This document shows positions 7,878 through 18,658 of a stretch of DNA of 18,658 nucleotides, one piece after another. Source of the stretch: a virus. Taxonomy: Duplodnaviria > Heunggongvirae > Uroviricota > Caudoviricetes. Below the pieces are notes generated by a model. That model was not told where the DNA came from. It ran no database searches and saw only the letters and a program-made list of their open reading frames with translations. The stretch lies in the IMG/VR virus record IMGVR_UViG_3300028453_000031, one strand, 5' to 3'. Position numbers and translations under genes: made by a program. How positions within the stretch are numbered: position 1 is the stretch's first letter; each line of letters starts with the position of its first letter.

Positions 7878-7899
7878 AAGCACGGTGTTCGGGGGTTTT

Positions 7900-8862
7900 A
7901 TGAGCAGCAAGCTTCATGGTCTTGTCTGGGAAGGGTGCGCCTTCACCGGCATGATCTTATCCAGGGTGGCAGTTATGGCCCGTCTTGCAGACTACAGCAA
8001 TGACGAGGGCGTGTCATGGCCTGCCATTGAAACTATCCGGCGTCAGATCGGTGCAAGAAGTGAATCTACCGTGAAATCTGCTATTGCAGAACTGGCGAAA
8101 GAGGGCTGGCTGACGAAGGAAGAGCGTAAGGTCGGTGGGCGTAACGTAAGCAATATCTATCGGCTTAATGTGGAAAAACTCGAAGCAGCTGCAGCTGCGG
8201 CCCGTGAGGCATATAAACCGAAAAGAAAAATTAGCCCGGCAAAAAATGACCCGTTAACAGTTGACCCGTCAAATATTGACCCCTCAACTGTTGACCCGTC
8301 AAATTTTGATGGATCAACTGTTGATAAAAAACTGCCGATTAGGGGGGCGATGATTGACCCCGATCCGTCAGTATTAAAACCTGATCCGTCAGATAAAAGA
8401 TCTTCTTGTCCGGACGTTTCGCAACCGGACCCGCAGACGGCTGAACAGGATTTTTTAACCCGACACCCTGACGCGGTTGTGTTCAGTGCGAAAAAACGCC
8501 AGTGGGGAAGTCAGGAAGATTTGGCGTGCGCACAGTGGATCTGGGGACGAATCGTGAGTCTTTACGAGCAGGCGGCCAGCGATGATGGCGAGATCACGAG
8601 ACCGAAAGAACCCAACTGGACAGCATGGGCCAATGATGTGCGCACAATGCGGATGCTGGATGGCAGAACTCACAGACAAATTTGTGAAATGTTTGGGCGT
8701 GTCCAGCGGGATTCGTTCTGGGTAAAAAACATCATGAGTCCGGCAAAACTCCGGGAAAAATGGGATGAACTGGTTATCCGCCTGGGGCGTTCGCCCGCGC
8801 AGCGTTGCGTGAATCACATTTCTGAACCGGACACTGAAATACCGCCGGGATTCAGGGGGTGA
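7900..8862 (+). CDS. Replication initiator (O-like / YdaU-like) with N-terminal winged helix
   Basis: N-terminal HTH region (ARLADYSNDEGVSWPAIETIRRQIGARSESTVKSAIAELAKEGWL); internal tandem iterons; immediately upstream of the DnaC-like gene. ATG 7900 preferred over the track's GTG 7885 (G-rich SD-like stretch upstream). Confidence 0.8.
   Translation: MSSKLHGLVWEGCAFTGMILSRVAVMARLADYSNDEGVSWPAIETIRRQIGARSESTVKSAIAELAKEGWLTKEERKVGGRNVSNIYRLNVEKLEAAAAAAREAYKPKRKISPAKNDPLTVDPSNIDPSTVDPSNFDGSTVDKKLPIRGAMIDPDPSVLKPDPSDKRSSCPDVSQPDPQTAEQDFLTRHPDAVVFSAKKRQWGSQEDLACAQWIWGRIVSLYEQAASDDGEITRPKEPNWTAWANDVRTMRMLDGRTHRQICEMFGRVQRDSFWVKNIMSPAKLREKWDELVIRLGRSPAQRCVNHISEPDTEIPPGFRG
8246..8320. repeat. Iterons (candidate ori): five tandem ~15-bp repeats inside the initiator gene
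   Basis: Units TGACCCGTTAACAGT / TGACCCGTCAAATAT / TGACCCCTCAACTGT / TGACCCGTCAAATTT / TGATGGATCAACTGT with 15-bp period, encoding DPLTVDPSNIDPSTVDPSNFDGSTVD. This is the lambda O-type arrangement. Confidence 0.65.
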
Positions 8863-8868
8863 CGTGTC

Positions 8869-9606
8869 ATGAAAAACATTGCGGCAGTTGGGGTTCTTGA
8901 ACGTATTCGCAGAATTGCACCACAGGGGGAGGTTCCACCGTACCGTACGGTGGAGGAGTGGCGGGAATGGCAGCTTGCTGAAGGGCGTAAGCGCAGCGAG
9001 GAGGTTAATCGCCTGAATCATCAGACGCGGGTTGAAAAAATCATTAACCGCTCCGGTATCCAGCCGCTTCACTGGAAGTGTACGTTCGGTAACTACCGGG
9101 TGCAGAACGATGGTCAGCGCCATGCCCTGAGTCAGGCGAAATCCATTGCGGCAGAGCTGGAAGGCGGCTGTACGAATTTTGTTTTCAGTGGCCGACCTGG
9201 CACAGGGAAAAACCACCCGGCGGCGATAGGCAATCGGCTGATGGAGAAGGGGCGCAGCGTAATTATCATCACTGTGTCTGATGTCATGAGTGTGTCGCAC
9301 GACAGTTACGACAACGGCAAATCAGGTGAAAAATTTTTACAGGAGCTTTGCGAGGTGGATTTGCTGGTCCTGGATGAAATTGGCATGCAGCGGGATACGC
9401 GCAATGAGCAAGTCACGCTTAATCAGATTGTTGACCGCAGAACGTCATCATTACGCAGTGTAGGGATGCTGACGAACCTGAATCATGTCGCAATGAATAC
9501 GCTTGTAGGCGAAAGGGCAATGGACCGCATGTCCATGAACGGTGGTCGCTGGGTGACTTTTGACTGGGAGAGCTGGCGTCCGAACGTCAGCCAGCACAGG
9601 AACTGA
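8869..9606 (+). CDS. DnaC-like helicase loader (AAA+ ATPase)
   Basis: SGRPGTGKNHPAAIGN (Walker A as in E. coli DnaC GKPGTGKNH), LLVLDEIGMQ (Walker B), and a C-terminal region resembling DnaC (NQIVDRR...GMLTNLN). Start is coupled to the initiator stop. Confidence 0.85.
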   Translation: MKNIAAVGVLERIRRIAPQGEVPPYRTVEEWREWQLAEGRKRSEEVNRLNHQTRVEKIINRSGIQPLHWKCTFGNYRVQNDGQRHALSQAKSIAAELEGGCTNFVFSGRPGTGKNHPAAIGNRLMEKGRSVIIITVSDVMSVSHDSYDNGKSGEKFLQELCEVDLLVLDEIGMQRDTRNEQVTLNQIVDRRTSSLRSVGMLTNLNHVAMNTLVGERAMDRMSMNGGRWVTFDWESWRPNVSQHRN

Positions 9607-9634
9607 GATGTAATTTTTGTCGGAGGAAATTTTA

Positions 9635-10405
9635 ATGGAAACCGTTTTTGACGCACTGAAAGCAATGGGAAAAGCCACATCGGTAGAACTGGCTGCGCGA
9701 CTTGATATCAGTCGTGAAGAGGTTCTCAACGAGCTGTGGGAACTCAAAAGAAATGGCGTCGTTGATAAAACTGGTCACACCTGGTTTCTGGCTGGCGAAG
9801 GTGAATCCCGGGTAACCGAAGAGCAGCCAGCAAAATCTGAAGCACCGGATGTGCTGACCGGGGAGGTCGAACAAAAAGTTACCGCAGACATGATGATTGA
9901 GTTTATCGGTCAGGAGGGGGCTAAAACGTGTGAGGAACTGGCGGGTAAGTTCGGTGTTAGCACTCGCAAGGTTGCTTCCACGCTGGCGGTAGTAACCGCA
10001 ACGGGGCGGTTGGCACGCGTTAATCAGAACGGTAAATTTCGTTACTGCATGCCGGGCGATAATTTACCAGTAGAGCCGAAAGCCGCGCCGGTAACGGAAA
10101 ATGATGGTAAGGCATTTCCTCAGTCAGCAGGTGTTGCGTTACCAGTCCGGGAAGCTGCAACACAGGAAGAAATTAAAACAGAAACTGTGGCGGACATTGT
10201 GCAGTCGTTGCCATCGTTCACCGAAACGCAAACGGATGACCTGGTTTTACCATCGCTGCATATGGCAAACCGCGAACTGCGTCGGGCGAAAAGTCATGTC
10301 CAGAAGTGGGAGCGTGTCTGCGCCGCGTTGCGGGAGCTGAACAAGCACCGGGATATTGTTCGACAGATTGTCGATTCCTCCAGTCGTATTGTGTCGGAAA
10401 AGTGA
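9635..10405 (+). CDS. Hypothetical protein with two winged-helix-like repeats
   Basis: GGAGG 8 nt before ATG 9635 (track start TTG 9617 less likely). Two similar HTH-like segments: [26 protein letters not shown] and [30 protein letters not shown]. Confidence 0.7.
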
Positions 10406-12422: not shown

Positions 12423-12656
12423 ATATGGGAATTCCCATATTGGGCAAAAACGGTTTGCTGTAAAGCGAGAGTTAAGTAGAATTGCTGCGGGTGCTTGAGG
12501 CTGTCTGCCTCGGGCATGCCGCCGTAAGGCAGACAGAGAAAAGCCCCAGTTAACATAACGCGTCCTGCAAGACGCTTAACATTAATCTGAGGCCCAATCT
12601 ATGTCTCACAAATGTAGGTTAGCCTCTTACGTGCCGAAGGCAAGGAGAAGCAGGCT
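12423..12656 (+). promoter_or_regulatory. hok mRNA leader region with strong secondary structure; expected location of the antisense (sok-like) RNA
   Basis: 18-bp perfect palindrome ATATGGGAATTCCCATAT (12423-12440); 10-bp perfect stem CTGTCTGCCT / AGGCAGACAG (12501-12510 and 12527-12536); short leader ORF 12601-12660 ending in ATGA at the hok start. Confidence 0.45.
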
Positions 12657-12812
12657 ATGAAGCAGCAAAAGGCGACGTTAATCGCCCTGATCGTCATCTG
12701 TTTAACCGTCATAGTGACGGCACTGGTAACGAGGAAAGACCTCTGCGAGGTACGAATCCGAACCGGCCAGACGGAGGTCGCTGTTTTCACAGTCTACGAA
12801 CCTGAGGAGTAA
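12657..12812 (+). CDS. hok: Hok/Gef family type I toxin
   Basis: 51-aa product MKQQKATLIALIVICLTVIVTALVTRKDLCEVRIRTGQTEVAVFTVYEPEE matches the Hok family pattern (TM helix then TRK.LCE.R.R.G..EVA....YE). AAGGAG 9 nt upstream. Confidence 0.85.
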   Translation: MKQQKATLIALIVICLTVIVTALVTRKDLCEVRIRTGQTEVAVFTVYEPEE

Positions 12813-14316: not shown

Positions 14317-14553
14317 ATGACCGAACGCATAGAATTTGTTTTGCCTTACCCGCCAACGGTGAACACTTACTGGCGACGTCGTGACCTGGACAACATTCTG
14401 AAAGCGCCACTGGATGCGCTGACGCATGCAGGACTACTTATCGACGACGAGCAGTTTGATGAAATTAATATTGTGCGCGGTCTGCCTGTTCCTGGCGGAC
14501 GGCTTGGTGTGAAAATTTACGAAATAACGCATGGCGGGCAGGCAAAAGAATGA
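14317..14553 (+). CDS. rusA: RusA-family Holliday junction resolvase with apparent internal in-frame deletion (78 aa versus ~120 aa)
   Basis: N-terminus LPYPPTVNTYW and C-terminal part RRRDLDNILKAPLDALTHAGLLIDDEQ...GGRLGVKIYEI align to RusA as I recall it; about 40 central residues are absent. ATGA coupling at both ends. Confidence 0.65.
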   Translation: MTERIEFVLPYPPTVNTYWRRRDLDNILKAPLDALTHAGLLIDDEQFDEINIVRGLPVPGGRLGVKIYEITHGGQAKE

Positions 14554-15371
14554 AACTGGAAGATTTACCAAAATACTATTCCCCAAAATCACCGGGTCTG
14601 ACGGATGCATCGGCCTCAACGTCAAAAGATGCGCTGAGTATCACTGATGTGATGGCAGCGCAGGGCATGACACAGAATCGGGCTGAGATGGGGTTTTCTG
14701 CGTTCCTTGGGAAAATGGGCATTAGTATGAATGACAGAGAGCGGGCAACAGAATTGCTGACAGAATATGCACTCAGTCGGTGTGATCGCGTGGCGGCGTT
14801 AAGAAAACTCCCGGCAGAAATAAAACCGGCAGTGATGCGTATTATGGCTTCGTATGCGTTTGAAGATTATGCCCGTAGCGCGGCGAGCAAAAAACAGTGC
14901 CCCTGCTGTCACGGAAAAAAATTTATTGAAAGCGAGGTTTTTACAAACAAGATCCAGTATCCGGATGGTAAGCCGCCAGTGTGGGCAAAGTGCACAAAAG
15001 GCGTGTATCCGTCTTACTGGGAGGAATGGAAAAAAGTCAGGGAGGTGGTAAAAGTTGCCTGTCCGGAGTGTGGAGGGAAGGGAGAGGTATCCACTGCCTG
15101 TAAAGATTGTCGTGGGCGCGGTGTTGCCATTCATCGTGAAGAGTCGGAAAAACAGGGTGTGCCGGTTTTCAGAAACTGTCAGCGTTGTGGTGGGCGTGGC
15201 TATGAAAGATTACCTTCAACGGAGGCATTTAATGCCATATGTAATGTAACCGATGCCATATCTCTTGATACATGGAAAAAAACAGTTAAACGTTTTTACG
15301 ATACGCTGGTGGTGCAGTTTGATATTGAAGAAGCATGGGCAGAACAACAACTGAAAAAGGTGACCAGATAG
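14550..15371 (+). CDS. Late-gene antiterminator Q-like protein (multi-CxxC zinc binding)
   Basis: Position after rusA and before the late promoter and tRNAs. SPKSP...TDVMAAQGM N-terminal pattern and several CxxC pairs. Family assignment is from memory of Q-type proteins. Confidence 0.65.
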   Translation: MKLEDLPKYYSPKSPGLTDASASTSKDALSITDVMAAQGMTQNRAEMGFSAFLGKMGISMNDRERATELLTEYALSRCDRVAALRKLPAEIKPAVMRIMASYAFEDYARSAASKKQCPCCHGKKFIESEVFTNKIQYPDGKPPVWAKCTKGVYPSYWEEWKKVREVVKVACPECGGKGEVSTACKDCRGRGVAIHREESEKQGVPVFRNCQRCGGRGYERLPSTEAFNAICNVTDAISLDTWKKTVKRFYDTLVVQFDIEEAWAEQQLKKVTR

Positions 15372-15794: not shown

Positions 15795-15944
15795 AGGCTT
15801 TTTTATTTGTGGTAAATGGGCGGCTGGTGGGTGTTAGGGGCACTCACCAGCCATCTGCTCATGCGTCTGGATCACAAGCAAACCTCAGGCCCACTGCTTT
15901 GCGCAAAAGCAGAATGAGCCTATCAGAGACAGGCTTAATGATCC

Positions 15945-17003
15945 ATGTTTAATACTGTAAAAATATCCAGTTGTGAGTTGATCAACGCTGACTGCCTGGA
16001 ATTTATCCGGTCGTTACCCGAAAATTCTGTTGACCTGATAGTCACGGACCCGCCGTCCTTTAAAGTGAAGCCTGAGGGCTGGGATAACCAGTGGAAGGGC
16101 GACGATGATTACCTGAAATGGCTGGACCAGTGTCTGGCGCAGTTCTGGCGGGTGCTGAAACCTGCCGGAAGTCTTTACCTGTTCTGTGGCCATCGCCTGG
16201 CATCTGACATTGAAATCATGATGCGAGAACGCTTCAGTGTGCTGAACCATATTATCTGGGCGAAGCCGTCCGGACGCTGGAACGGGTGCAACAAGGAAAG
16301 CCTGAGGGCGTATTTCCCCGCCACAGAGCGCATTCTGTTCGCGGAACATTATCAGGGGCCGTATCGTCCGAAAGATGCCGGGTATGAGGCGAAGGGCAGG
16401 GCACTGAAACAGCATGTGATGACACCGCTGATTGCTTACTTTCGTGATGCGCGTGCTGCCCTGGGGATAACGGCAAAACAGATTGCTGATGCCACAGGAA
16501 AGAAAAACATGGTGTCGCACTGGTTCAGTGCCAGTCAGTGGCAGTTACCGAACGAAAGCGATTATCTGAAATTACAGGTGCTGTTTGCCCGGGTGGCAGA
16601 AGAGAAGCATCAGCGGGGTGAACTGGAAAAGCCCCACCACCAGCTGCTGGAGACGTATACTTCACTGAACCGGCAGTATGCGGAACTGCAGAGTGAATAT
16701 AAGCATCTGCGGCGGTATTTTGGCGTGACGGCGCAGATGCCGTACACGGATGTGTGGACGCATAAACCGGTGCAGTACTATCCCGGGAAACATCCGTGCG
16801 AAAAACCGGCAGAAATGCTGCAGCAGATAATCAGCGCGAGCAGTCGTCCGGGTGACCTGGTTGCAGATTTTTTCATGGGGTCGGGTTCGACAGTCAAAGC
16901 CGCGATGGCGCTGGGGCGGCGTGCAACTGGCGTTGAGCTGGAGACTGAACGTTTTGAGCAGACGGTCAGAGAAGTTCAGGATTTAGTCAGTCAGAACGGA
17001 TGA
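15945..17003 (+). CDS. Orphan DNA methyltransferase, beta-class amino-MTase (N6-adenine or N4-cytosine)
   Basis: Motif IV-like LIVTDPPSF near the N-terminus and motif I FFMGSGST near the C-terminus (beta-class order). No adjacent restriction endonuclease gene. Confidence 0.85.
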   Translation: MFNTVKISSCELINADCLEFIRSLPENSVDLIVTDPPSFKVKPEGWDNQWKGDDDYLKWLDQCLAQFWRVLKPAGSLYLFCGHRLASDIEIMMRERFSVLNHIIWAKPSGRWNGCNKESLRAYFPATERILFAEHYQGPYRPKDAGYEAKGRALKQHVMTPLIAYFRDARAALGITAKQIADATGKKNMVSHWFSASQWQLPNESDYLKLQVLFARVAEEKHQRGELEKPHHQLLETYTSLNRQYAELQSEYKHLRRYFGVTAQMPYTDVWTHKPVQYYPGKHPCEKPAEMLQQIISASSRPGDLVADFFMGSGSTVKAAMALGRRATGVELETERFEQTVREVQDLVSQNG

Positions 17004-17043
17004 TATTGCAGGATTAGTTACGTACCGTTATTATCCTGCGCCC

Positions 17044-17119
17044 GGCCCTTTAGCTCAGTGGTGAGAGCGAGCGACTCATAATCGCCAGGTCGCTGGTTCA
17101 AATCCAGCAAGGGCCACCA
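17044..17119 (+). tRNA. ileZ: tRNA-Ile (anticodon CAU, lysidine type), ileX/ileZ-like
   Basis: 76 nt, 7-bp acceptor stem GGCCCTT/AAGGGCC, anticodon loop CTCATAA, T-loop TTCAAAT, 3' CCA. Near-identical to E. coli tRNA-Ile2 as I recall it. Confidence 0.85.
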
Positions 17120-17128
17120 TATCACATA

Positions 17129-17205
17129 CCGCCATTAGCTCATCGGGATAGAGCGCCAGCCTTCGAAGCTGGCTGCGCGGGGTTCGAGTCCTCGATGGCG
17201 GTCCA
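17129..17205 (+). tRNA. tRNA-Arg (anticodon UCG)
   Basis: 77 nt, acceptor CCGCCAT/ATGGCGG, D-arm GCTC/GAGC, anticodon stem CCAGC/GCTGG with loop CTTCGAA, T-arm CGGGG-TTCGAGT-CCTCG, 3' CCA. Resembles the rare-codon Arg tRNA (argO-like) of Stx phages. Confidence 0.8.
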
Positions 17206-17483
17206 TTATCTGCATTATGCGTTGTTGGTTCTGATGAGTGAATCATTGTCTTTTGAGCAACAGGCTATCATATAAGATAGCCTCAGACTTCCTTGTTTAT
17301 TCTCGCCGGATGCTTCGTAGATATTTGCAGGCATCTGTATGCAGGGGTATTATTGCGGCATATATCATCCGGAAAAATAAAAACTACATGCTGATCCGGA
17401 GATGATAGTTACAAGTCCTCCCGGATCCCGCATATTTACTATATTTTATAGATAATTGTTCTTGTTAATATGGAGATGGATAA

Positions 17484-17912
17484 ATGTATTGCCGTGCTGT
17501 ACCGGTTCTTGTTTTGATATTAGCCAGTCTGACAACTGGCTGCACAAAAGATGTATCGACAAATAATCATGATGCTTCTCTGTATCACTCAGATAAATTA
17601 ATAAAGTCGCAAAATTTGAGCTCATCGGAACGTACCCCTGATGCCAGTGAAGAAATCCGGCAGTATGCCATTCAGGTCAGGAAAGCCATAGAAGAACAGT
17701 TAAAGGATGCGAGTAAGTATTCAGGAAAAGAGTGTTCACTGAGAATGTATATGGCCCCGAATGGTCTTCTGCTACAGGTTAAAAGAGAAAGCGGTGATCC
17801 CGATTTATGTCGTGAAGCGATGAATGCAGTAAAGAATGCTGATATACCATCACCACCGTCTTCAGGAGTATATAAAGCATTTAGAAATGGCGTGCTGGAT
17901 TTTAAACTCTGA
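17484..17912 (+). CDS. Lipoprotein with TolA C-terminal domain (domain III)-like mature region; moron candidate
   Basis: Signal peptide with lipobox LTTGC. Residues ~57-142 (YAIQVRKAIEEQLKDASKYSGKECSLRMYMAPNGLLLQVKRESGDPDLCREAMNAVKNADIPSPPSSGVYKAFRNGVLDFKL) align with the TolA C-terminal domain, including both cysteines. GGAG 8 nt upstream; markedly AT-rich gene and flanks. Confidence 0.8.
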   Translation: MYCRAVPVLVLILASLTTGCTKDVSTNNHDASLYHSDKLIKSQNLSSSERTPDASEEIRQYAIQVRKAIEEQLKDASKYSGKECSLRMYMAPNGLLLQVKRESGDPDLCREAMNAVKNADIPSPPSSGVYKAFRNGVLDFKL

Positions 17913-17942
17913 CAGGGGGAGAAGATTTTCTCCTGTCCTGAT
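17913..17942 (+). terminator. Hairpin after the lipoprotein gene (weak terminator candidate)
   Basis: GACAGGGGGAGAA...TTCTCCTGTC imperfect inverted repeat directly after the stop. Confidence 0.35.
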
Positions 17943-18202
17943 GATTTTGGGGCGCTGGAAAGATATTGTGCTGTGAAGTGTTAAATCCCTCACAATTCAG
18001 TAAGTTGACAGTTGCCTGTCAGACTGAGCATTTGTTAAAAAAATTTCGCATGGTGAATCCCCCTGTGCGGAGGGGCGACTGGTGAACGGTATGATCTCTT
18101 TGATGATCGTAAGCGAGAATACGCGGGTTTGGTGTCACCGGGCTGAACTCACCGGGAGGCACCCGGCACCATGCTCATGGTGATACAGAAATGCGGCTTC
18201 AG

Positions 18203-18228
18203 CCCCTCTCCGGAGGGGCTTTCTTATG
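18203..18228 (+). terminator. Rho-independent terminator (plus strand)
   Basis: GCCCCTC-TCCG-GAGGGGC perfect 7-bp stem followed by TTTCTTAT. Confidence 0.5.
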
Positions 18229-18232
18229 GACA

Positions 18233-18261
18233 AAAAAAGCCCGCGCTGGGAGACGCGGGCG
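18233..18261 (-). terminator. Rho-independent terminator (minus strand)
   Basis: GCCCGCG...CGCGGGC stem preceded on the plus strand by A7, i.e. a U-run on the minus strand. Confidence 0.5.
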
Positions 18262-18382
18262 GCAAGGAATAAACAATAAAACGTGAAGTAATACTTCAAC
18301 TGGCGAATAATACCCGACAGTAATCACTCTGCGCAATAGCGTGGCCTTTTTCGAATTGCGGGCTGTAGTCTCCCTTCTGCCG

Positions 18383-18543
18383 GGTGTCCTGGTTGCAGAT
18401 TTCTTCATGGGGTAGGGTTCGGCAGTTAAAGCAGCGATGGCGCTGGGGCGTCGTGCAACTGGCGTTGAGCTGGATACCGGGCGTTTTGAACAGACTGCGC
18501 AGGAAATCAGGGATGTATTTAGCGGGAGCGCTTTGCAGAAGTA
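18383..18543 (+). pseudogene. Degenerate duplicate of the methyltransferase 3' end (motif I region) with an in-frame stop
   Basis: Aligns to 16851-17003: CTGGTTGCAGATTTCTTCATGGGGTAGGGTTCGGCAGTTAAAGC versus CTGGTTGCAGATTTTTTCATGGGGTCGGGTTCGACAGTCAAAGC. Encodes LVADFFMG*GSAVKAAMALGRRATGVELDTGRFEQT... with TAG replacing TCG. Confidence 0.7.
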
Positions 18544-18658
18544 ATCTCCCAAAATGCCATTTTTGGAATATACTGGTATTAAGTCTTTTTGCTCAGGTTA
18601 ATTCAAAATGGATGTTGCCTGCTCTGTGGTCCTGATTCGCTATCCGATAGATATTTTT

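Follow-up and report, generated by a model that had tools for sequence, protein, structure and literature searches.

We analysed an 18,658-nt stretch of virus DNA (Caudoviricetes; IMG/VR record IMGVR_UViG_3300028453_000031), hereafter called the window, which carries an intact phage DNA methyltransferase (MTase) gene and, about 1.5 kb downstream of its 3' end, a second and diverged copy of that end. With a probability of roughly 0.8, we read this second copy as a non-functional scar of an out-of-register join between two related phage late regions. The window is a lambdoid prophage with an integrase gene at 753-1871, a RecE-like exonuclease, replication genes, sok and RusA, and the antiterminator Q (PF03589) lies at 14550-15371. 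Its part from 15900 to 18658 is 99.8% identical to a prophage of Escherichia coli HY220605 (locus L001), in which the gene order continues downstream with an AraC-family regulator, three more copies of the small RNA (sRNA) gene STnc100, nanS-p, holin and lysozyme. The locus is the late-gene cargo region, from Q to the lysis genes, of a prophage resembling Shiga toxin (Stx) phages. The features that bear directly on the scar are the following.

15945..17003, + strand: intact phage DNA methyltransferase gene (352 aa, N6_N4_Mtase; Pfam PF01555, E 7e-42)
16848..17003, + strand: repeat copy 1, the last 51 codons and the stop of the intact MTase, including the S-adenosylmethionine (AdoMet) motif DFFMGSGS
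18232..18379, + strand: conserved leader, continuing into nanS-p in Stx2a phages and cut off in the window at ...CTTCTGCC
18380..18544, + strand: repeat copy 2, the MTase 3' remnant (165 bases, 54 codons and a stop), derived from an allele whose C-terminal tail differs

The repeat pair and the dead methyltransferase copy

The window contains one long direct repeat, formed by 16848-16990 and 18380-18522 (143 nt, 83% identical without gaps), whose copies are 1,532 nt apart from start to start. BLASTN aligns 16848-16963 with 18380-18495 at 89.7% identity over 116 nt (E = 1e-39). In the pairwise alignment of the two copies the nucleotide identity falls away past about column 116, and the tail beyond it is similar at the protein level only, the remnant tail and the intact tail being roughly half identical. 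The original prediction for this DNA had described about 160 bp at 18383-18543 as a diverged duplicate of the MTase 3' end at 16851-17003, and its edges are correct to within 1-3 nt. Its account of high identity giving way to protein-level similarity also stands, but the well-conserved part extends over about 116 nt and not over the first ~85 nt, and at the E value obtained its reservation that the similarity might be too weak for homology falls away.

Translated in the MTase frame, copy 2 reads PGVLVADFFMG, a stop, GSAVKAAMALGRRATGVELDTGRFEQTAQEIRDVFSGSALQK and a second stop, while the same region of the intact gene reads PGDLVADFFMGSGSTVKAAMALGRRATGVELETERFEQTVREVQDLVSQNG followed by its stop. 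The premature TAG, which had been seen in the prediction, is located in frame at 18413-18415 and the remnant's own stop is the TAA at 18542-18544. Translated in frame, the remnant can be aligned with the last 51 residues of the MTase, DFFMGSGS included. Homology begins at MTase codon ~302, and the sequence 5' of that point is the STnc100/nanS-p leader, leaving a fragment without the catalytic DPPY half of the enzyme. Showing both homology to the family and incompleteness, the remnant is a pseudogene fragment of a PF01555 (N6_N4_Mtase) phage DNA methyltransferase. This status is already present in databases, as RefSeq PGAP labels copy 2 'DNA methyltransferase; internal stop; incomplete; missing N-terminus'.

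Two open reading frames (ORFs) in other frames overlap the remnant, one of 83 aa (18384-18635, + strand) and one of 117 aa (18199-18552, - strand). The possibility, raised in the prediction, that the second copy belongs to an intact gene in another frame finds no backing in them: a Pfam search of both gave no match, PGAP calls neither of them as a gene and annotates the pseudogene only, and the counterpart of the 83-aa ORF in the intact copy is only 44 aa long. Since the catalytic half is missing, the stop is common to diverged lineages and the alternative-frame ORFs have no family match, the remnant has no evident function and is a non-functional scar.

The left junction

The leader reads ...GCGGGCTGTAGTCTCCCTTCTGCC ATTGTCCTGTAAC... 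in Stx2a phages and, in every prophage examined, behind the last STnc100 copy; the ATG of nanS-p follows about 62 nt later. Indeed, in Stx2a phages the sequence after STnc100 runs directly into nanS-p, from ...CTTCTGCC into ATTGTCCTGTAAC... and on to the nanS-p ATG, with no remnant on the way. In the window, MTase sequence (GGGTGTCCTGGTTGC...) comes after ...CTTCTGCC, and the continuation past the leader (GGGTGTCCTGGTTGCAGAT...) corresponds to MTase codon ~302 onward. The two partners of the join share CC only, plus a nearby TGTCCTG. From these comparisons the left edge of the remnant is a clean and classical non-homologous (microhomology) novel joint, placed 62 nt upstream of the would-be nanS-p start.

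According to the ORF list and to Pfam, there is no recombinase gene between the repeats, the only protein-coding gene there being that of a lipoprotein with a TolA-like domain. When a synthetic query made of stx2B, STnc100 and the remnant was searched in 5,426 complete E. coli genomes, no genome contained it. Given this absence of the remnant from behind stx, the join looks like a single historical event tied to the TolA-lipoprotein module and not like a recurrent site-specific process.

The alternative tail in related prophages

The window-type arrangement (16800-18658) was found in 99 of the 5,426 complete genomes, mostly E. coli strains that make Shiga toxin (STEC), of several serotypes, and for this reason it is not an assembly artefact. 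In E. coli SMBL, an intact MTase of 355 aa ends in ...ELDTGRFEQTAQEIRDVFSGSGLQK and is directly followed by the same intergenic sequence and AraC-like gene as in the window; from the first base of the remnant onward SMBL is 99% identical to the window and to L001. The SMBL-type junction is also present on several draft contigs, and the exact 355-aa protein is found on 60 contigs. The original prediction had interpreted the second copy as a recombination scar marking where a different MTase allele once ended, and had proposed to look among relatives for an intact MTase directly before the sequence that follows 18543. Both the interpretation and the search bore fruit, as the alternative tail ends just such an intact MTase in SMBL and on the draft contigs.

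The C-terminal tails of the MTase family are hypervariable across Enterobacteriaceae, and several of them are like the alternative tail (e.g. ...QTVNDIRGIFGGGDS and ...QTSQEIRALTET). Since MTase homologues of other Enterobacteriaceae end in similar tails, the alternative tail is a genuine allele tail and not drifted junk. The boundary of the module thus falls within the MTase, at codon 333 or so, and the ~20 final codons travel with whatever is downstream.

There are 6 diagnostic sites within the first 54 nt of the repeat, and the SMBL allele has the intact-copy state at each of them; from about nt 90 it carries the remnant states. Of the mismatches between L001 and SMBL, 6 fall within the first 72 nt and 7 within the 1,448 nt that follow (p = 1e-5 by Fisher's test). 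Judged by its diagnostic sites, the SMBL allele is a mosaic, in part intact copy and in part remnant. The TAG-bearing haplotype is common to the window and to the remnant of another relative, LZSFT34, and is considered old because the latter is diverged (~7% in its distal part). Since the mosaic pattern fits a crossover between the repeats, the TAG haplotype is old and the SMBL type is rare (1 of the 5,426 complete genomes has it, while ~80-99 have the window type), we regard the SMBL type as somewhat more probably a secondary deletion of the window type than the ancestral donor.

In LZSFT34 (locus L006, 5187-6023) the remnant is present and, as a segment of 1,279 nt that includes the AraC-like gene is missing, it abuts the STnc100 array. 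As the remnant occurs there without the AraC-like segment, the AraC-like gene is a separable module. Another remnant, that of locus L010 (GCA_000647455), shares the left junction and the alternative end but has intact-copy sequence in the middle; it has TCG for TAG and ELETERFEQT for ELDTGRFEQT, and no stop. The middle of this remnant is a gene-conversion tract. At positions 1386-1589 of L010 the stop-free remnant is called as a 67-aa 'methyltransferase' that starts in the STnc100/nanS-p leader (MAFFELRAVVSLLPGD...), and this protein call is an annotation artefact of the scar.

Proposed history and alternative explanations

From the repeat, the junction, the variants and the mosaic pattern, all of which can be read directly, we infer an order of events and a mechanism for the original join. 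Parent A would have had the Stx2a layout with the TolA-domain lipoprotein gene in place of stxAB, that is an MTase with the standard tail, ileZ, argN, the cargo, STnc100, the leader and nanS-p. Parent B would have carried an MTase with the alternative tail, its downstream sequence (in the window lineage, the AraC-like gene), an STnc100 array, the leader and nanS-p. A non-homologous join would then have fused the leader of A, 62 nt before nanS-p, to codon ~302 of the MTase of B, of which the last 54 codons alone would survive, with the TAG acquired later. The outcome would be a partial tandem duplication of the interval from MTase to nanS-p, with two cargo modules in series and the remnant between them. 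The two MTase 3' ends are now direct repeats of ~150 nt that are still recombining: conversion has overwritten part of the remnant in one genome, and a crossover between the repeats would delete the 1,532-bp tRNA-lipoprotein-sRNA segment, restoring the 355-aa alternative-tail MTase of the SMBL type.

Several points weigh against this history. Neither the phage collection nor the complete E. coli genomes nor the species-representative genomes yielded an intact MTase with the complete remnant haplotype, which would be parent B proper. This haplotype is marked by GTC at codon 3 of the repeat, GCA-GTT at codons 15-16 and the alternative tail. When the repaired remnant peptide was compared by tblastn with phages, the best matches were standard-tail MTases at 79% and no alternative-tail allele was seen, and the exact 26-nt alternative-tail pattern had no match in 185,579 species-representative genomes. 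A short-peptide search of a 5.8-billion-protein database returned contig-edge fragments only, SMBL-type and L010 variants among them, and no full-length parental allele. As the large protein database is clustered at 90% identity and cannot resolve alleles, the C-terminal tails of its representatives were compared instead. Moreover, the proposed direction from window to SMBL type rests on parsimony in a highly mosaic system, the SMBL region upstream of the MTase differs from those of the window and of L001, and the exact content of parent B is uncertain, since the LZSFT34 remnant is without the AraC-like gene.

The direction could also be the opposite one, the SMBL type being the surviving parent B and the remnant, once identical to it, having later gained six 5'-proximal differences, including the TAG, by mutation or by conversion from MTase alleles of other prophages. 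With 60 contigs, and with several draft contigs, proteins of the SMBL type are not vanishingly rare. In addition, 2 of the 6 remnant-specific variants are also found in the intact LZSFT34 MTase, so that conversion from elsewhere is possible, and there are up to 6-15 related copies in these STEC strains. We nevertheless consider this direction unlikely: the sites at which remnant and SMBL differ lie close together, with 6 in the first 54 nt and 7 in the next 1,448, SMBL has at the former precisely the states of the intact copy that lies 1.5 kb upstream in window-type prophages, and the TAG haplotype shared with the LZSFT34 remnant implies a haplotype older than the split between window and SMBL.

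Starting from the join of two late regions, it could further be proposed that the MTase 3' ends act as recombination handles, by which the tRNA-TolA-lipoprotein-sRNA segment would be lost, or regained between co-resident prophages, at appreciable frequency. If this were true, each loss of the segment would switch the C-terminal tail of the MTase and put the AraC/YdeO-like regulator directly behind it, so that recombination would switch the phenotype of the lysogen in a crude way. That exchanges between the repeats do occur is seen from the SMBL-type and L010 variants. The proposal as a whole we hold to be improbable.

The direct-repeat geometry would also be expected from a tandem duplication in situ of the phage's own MTase 3' end followed by divergence, with no second phage involved. 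However, the copies are 10% diverged over 116 nt and their tails are about half identical, whereas the surrounding prophage DNA differs by 0.2-3% between genomes; the alternative tail ends an intact MTase elsewhere and resembles homologue tails in other genera; and the left junction meets the nanS-p leader instead of MTase-flanking sequence. Taken together, these observations make such an origin very improbable.

Hardly any weight can be given to the site-specific insertion of a small mobile cassette that brought a replacement 3' end and displaced the original one as the remnant, in the manner of e14 or phage 21 at icd, whose icd/icd' geometry the window resembles. Between the repeats there is neither an integrase nor another recombinase, Stx phages have the supposed insert and the standard tail but no remnant, the remnant stands beside stx cargo in 0/5,426 genomes, and the right junction would fall inside a leader that is unbroken in relatives. 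Finally, that the second copy belongs to a functional gene, in another frame or as a short C-terminal MTase fragment, is scarcely credible even with two ORFs over it and a stop-free 67-aa ORF called as a protein in one draft genome, given the lack of any Pfam match or gene call for the former, the shortness of the intact-copy counterpart, the missing catalytic half and a TAG common to diverged lineages.

Contents of the segment between the copies

The original prediction had placed two tRNAs, a TolA-III-like lipoprotein and a hairpin-rich noncoding stretch between the two copies. All of them are there, and the last is a full-length STnc100 sRNA gene.

17044..17119, + strand: tRNA with CAT anticodon (tRNA-Met by ARAGORN, tRNA-Ile by PGAP), corresponding to ileZ of Stx phages
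17129..17205, + strand: tRNA-Arg (TCG), the argN of Stx phages
17227..17989, no strand: low-GC cargo segment, in place of argO, stxA and stxB of Stx2a phages (BLASTN breakpoints)
17484..17912, + strand: lipoprotein gene, 142 aa, lipobox LTTGC, TolA domain-III-like (Pfam TolA_C PF06519, E 6e-23)
18019..18231, + strand: STnc100-family prophage sRNA gene (Rfam RF02076, 172.4 bits against a gathering score of 47, full model 1-206/206)
18201-18220, + strand: STnc100 terminator hairpin (terminator scan)
18239..18260, - strand: terminator-like GC hairpin with T-run, back to back with the STnc100 terminator (terminator scan)

Stx2a phages match the window up to 17226 (MTase and first two tRNAs, at 97%) and then continue with argO, stxA and stxB, while their homology to the window resumes at 17990-18391 with 91% identity. 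The window lacks argO, which is the third tRNA in Stx phages. Because the homology stops at 17226 and resumes at 17990, the unit exchanged as cargo is 17227-17989. Hence the modular exchange put forward in the prediction is right as far as the scar is concerned, but what is swapped against stxAB is this shorter unit instead of all that the MTase copies bracket. A gene for a TolA-domain-III lipoprotein can hold the stx position. As in moron modules, the cargo lies between Q and the lysis cassette and is swapped between homologous flanks in relatives. Its GC content is 36-44% compared to 52-56% in the flanks, and it shows one weak promoter-like site (17324-17353), with no more promoters than shuffled sequence would lead one to expect; the terminators come after it, in STnc100.

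The lipoprotein aligns to residues ~333-420 of E. coli TolA (PDB 1S62, 3QDP; E 2e-25) and belongs to PHROG 5772, where its function is listed as unknown. Against the TolA equivalog NF007065 it scores 103 bits, below the cut-off of 213, and only TolA positions 297-386 match; against TIGR02794 (tolA_full) it scores 75.9 bits, above the cut-off of 59.45, but with the domain-III portion only (profile positions 266-361/362). A full TolA is composed of an N-terminal membrane anchor, a long helical domain II and domain III. The PGAP name 'cell envelope integrity protein TolA' is an over-annotation for this protein of 142 aa, which has domain III alone and lacks the full-length architecture. Domain III of host TolA, of which the lipoprotein is essentially a copy, is the domain bound by TolB, by group A colicins and by g3p of Ff phages. 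Among other possibilities, the lipoprotein may act in the periplasm as a decoy for colicins or phages that depend on Tol (or in their exclusion), or as a Tol-Pal modulator. A homologue with 67% identity occupies the same interval between Q and lysis genes in phage mEp460, and the exact protein is found on at least 1000 contigs. A search of the literature for a prophage TolA-like lipoprotein found nothing relevant.

As regards the hairpin-rich stretch, the anti-sRNAs AsxR and AgvB were considered and rejected, as no such Rfam match was obtained and the stretch is STnc100. The STnc100 / PasD family of prophage sRNAs has been tied to esterase (nanS-p)-type neighbourhoods (Zhu, Shabalina & Storz 2026 preprint, doi 10.64898/2026.05.13.724894). 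The prophage type of the window has four STnc100 copies, one after the lipoprotein gene and three in tandem before nanS-p; the latter are located in L001 at 9192-9387, 9452-9650 and 9712-9900, 3' of the span covered by the window. The tandem array has two copies in SMBL and LZSFT34, and Stx2a phages have one STnc100.

The intact methyltransferase and the wider prophage

The window MTase and the one encoded upstream of stx2 in Stx2a phages are 97% identical. The catalytic motif IV of the window enzyme (16050-16061) is DPPS, with the Ser codon TCC at 16056-16058, and all 8 related loci examined have DPPY, the 99.8%-identical L001 among them. The exact DPPS protein is present on 48 public contigs, which makes it a real clonal variant, and the substitution in this motif may leave the enzyme catalytically impaired. 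The window MTase was considered as a possible member of the non-specific M.EcoGII type, homologues of which have been described in STEC prophages.

The last gene of the window is the following.

18608..18658, + strand: start of an AraC-family (YdeO/GadX-like) regulator gene, which runs off the window (241 aa in L001, 7809-8534)

The best matches of this regulator are YdeO and GadX, which are acid-resistance regulators, and its gene is nearly always linked to the remnant. A search for the remnant plus the AraC-like gene in the phage collection gave only the 116-nt MTase match, the AraC-like gene being in no phage there.

Elsewhere in the window, the Chi sequence GCTGGTGG occurs at 11 sites in 18.7 kb, 8 of them on the + strand, compared to 0.68 expected from shuffles (e.g. 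13299, 13356, 15305 and 15823 on the + strand and 16637 on the - strand). The RusA-like ORF at 14317-14553 has 78 aa and matches positions 77-122 of the 124-position Pfam profile; with a RusA of 119 aa in related loci, it looks internally deleted or truncated. Four iterons with a 15-nt period (consensus ..TTGACCCGT..) are located at 8226-8300, inside a replication-initiator-like ORF (7885-8862), and are presumably the phage origin. The sok antitoxin RNA of a hok/sok module (RF01794, 109 bits) lies at 12489-12662 in a nin-like region.

Comparison with known systems

Read as the product of two late regions joined out of register, the locus is a well-resolved case in which the conserved MTase body and the STnc100/nanS-p leader would serve as exchange points, rare non-homologous joins would stack modules, and the resulting repeats would then drive conversion and deletion. 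This explains a recurrent pseudogene call in ~100 complete STEC genomes and calls for caution with the alternative-tail MTase of 355 aa, which is probably a recombinant. The function of the TolA-domain-III lipoprotein is a more interesting question than the scar itself.

With the late cargo locus of Stx and other lambdoid phages (Q, MTase, ileZ-argN-argO, stxAB, nanS-p, lysis) the window shares the gene order, STnc100 with its leader, and the cargo breakpoints at 17226/17227 and 17989/17990. It differs in having the TolA-domain lipoprotein in place of argO and stxAB, and in an extra partial module (MTase remnant, AraC-like gene and three STnc100 copies) before nanS-p. The STnc100 copy in the window matches the full model and stands in the esterase (nanS-p)-type context described in the preprint for the STnc100/PasD family, with nothing unusual about it.

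The geometry also recalls e14 and phage 21 at icd, where an intact gene with a substituted 3' end is followed by the insert and by a displaced pseudo-3' end of ~160 nt. Unlike icd/icd', the window has no integrase and no att core, the inserted DNA is not autonomous and the junction is a one-off and non-homologous; neither a recombinase in the insert nor a junction that recurs regardless of cargo was found.

Gene remnants left by non-homologous joins between lambdoid phages are textbook mosaicism, the novel joints of the Hendrix/Juhala type. As in these, the joint in the window is sharp, has a microhomology of 2-7 nt and comes with a gene fragment that is truncated, and each flank is continuous with a different relative. 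What sets it apart from the usual novel joints is that direct repeats of ~150 nt were created, which are seen still recombining by conversion and deletion. With an sRNA family that is known and a pseudogene that is already annotated, the feature is ordinary phage mosaicism at the well-studied stx cargo locus.

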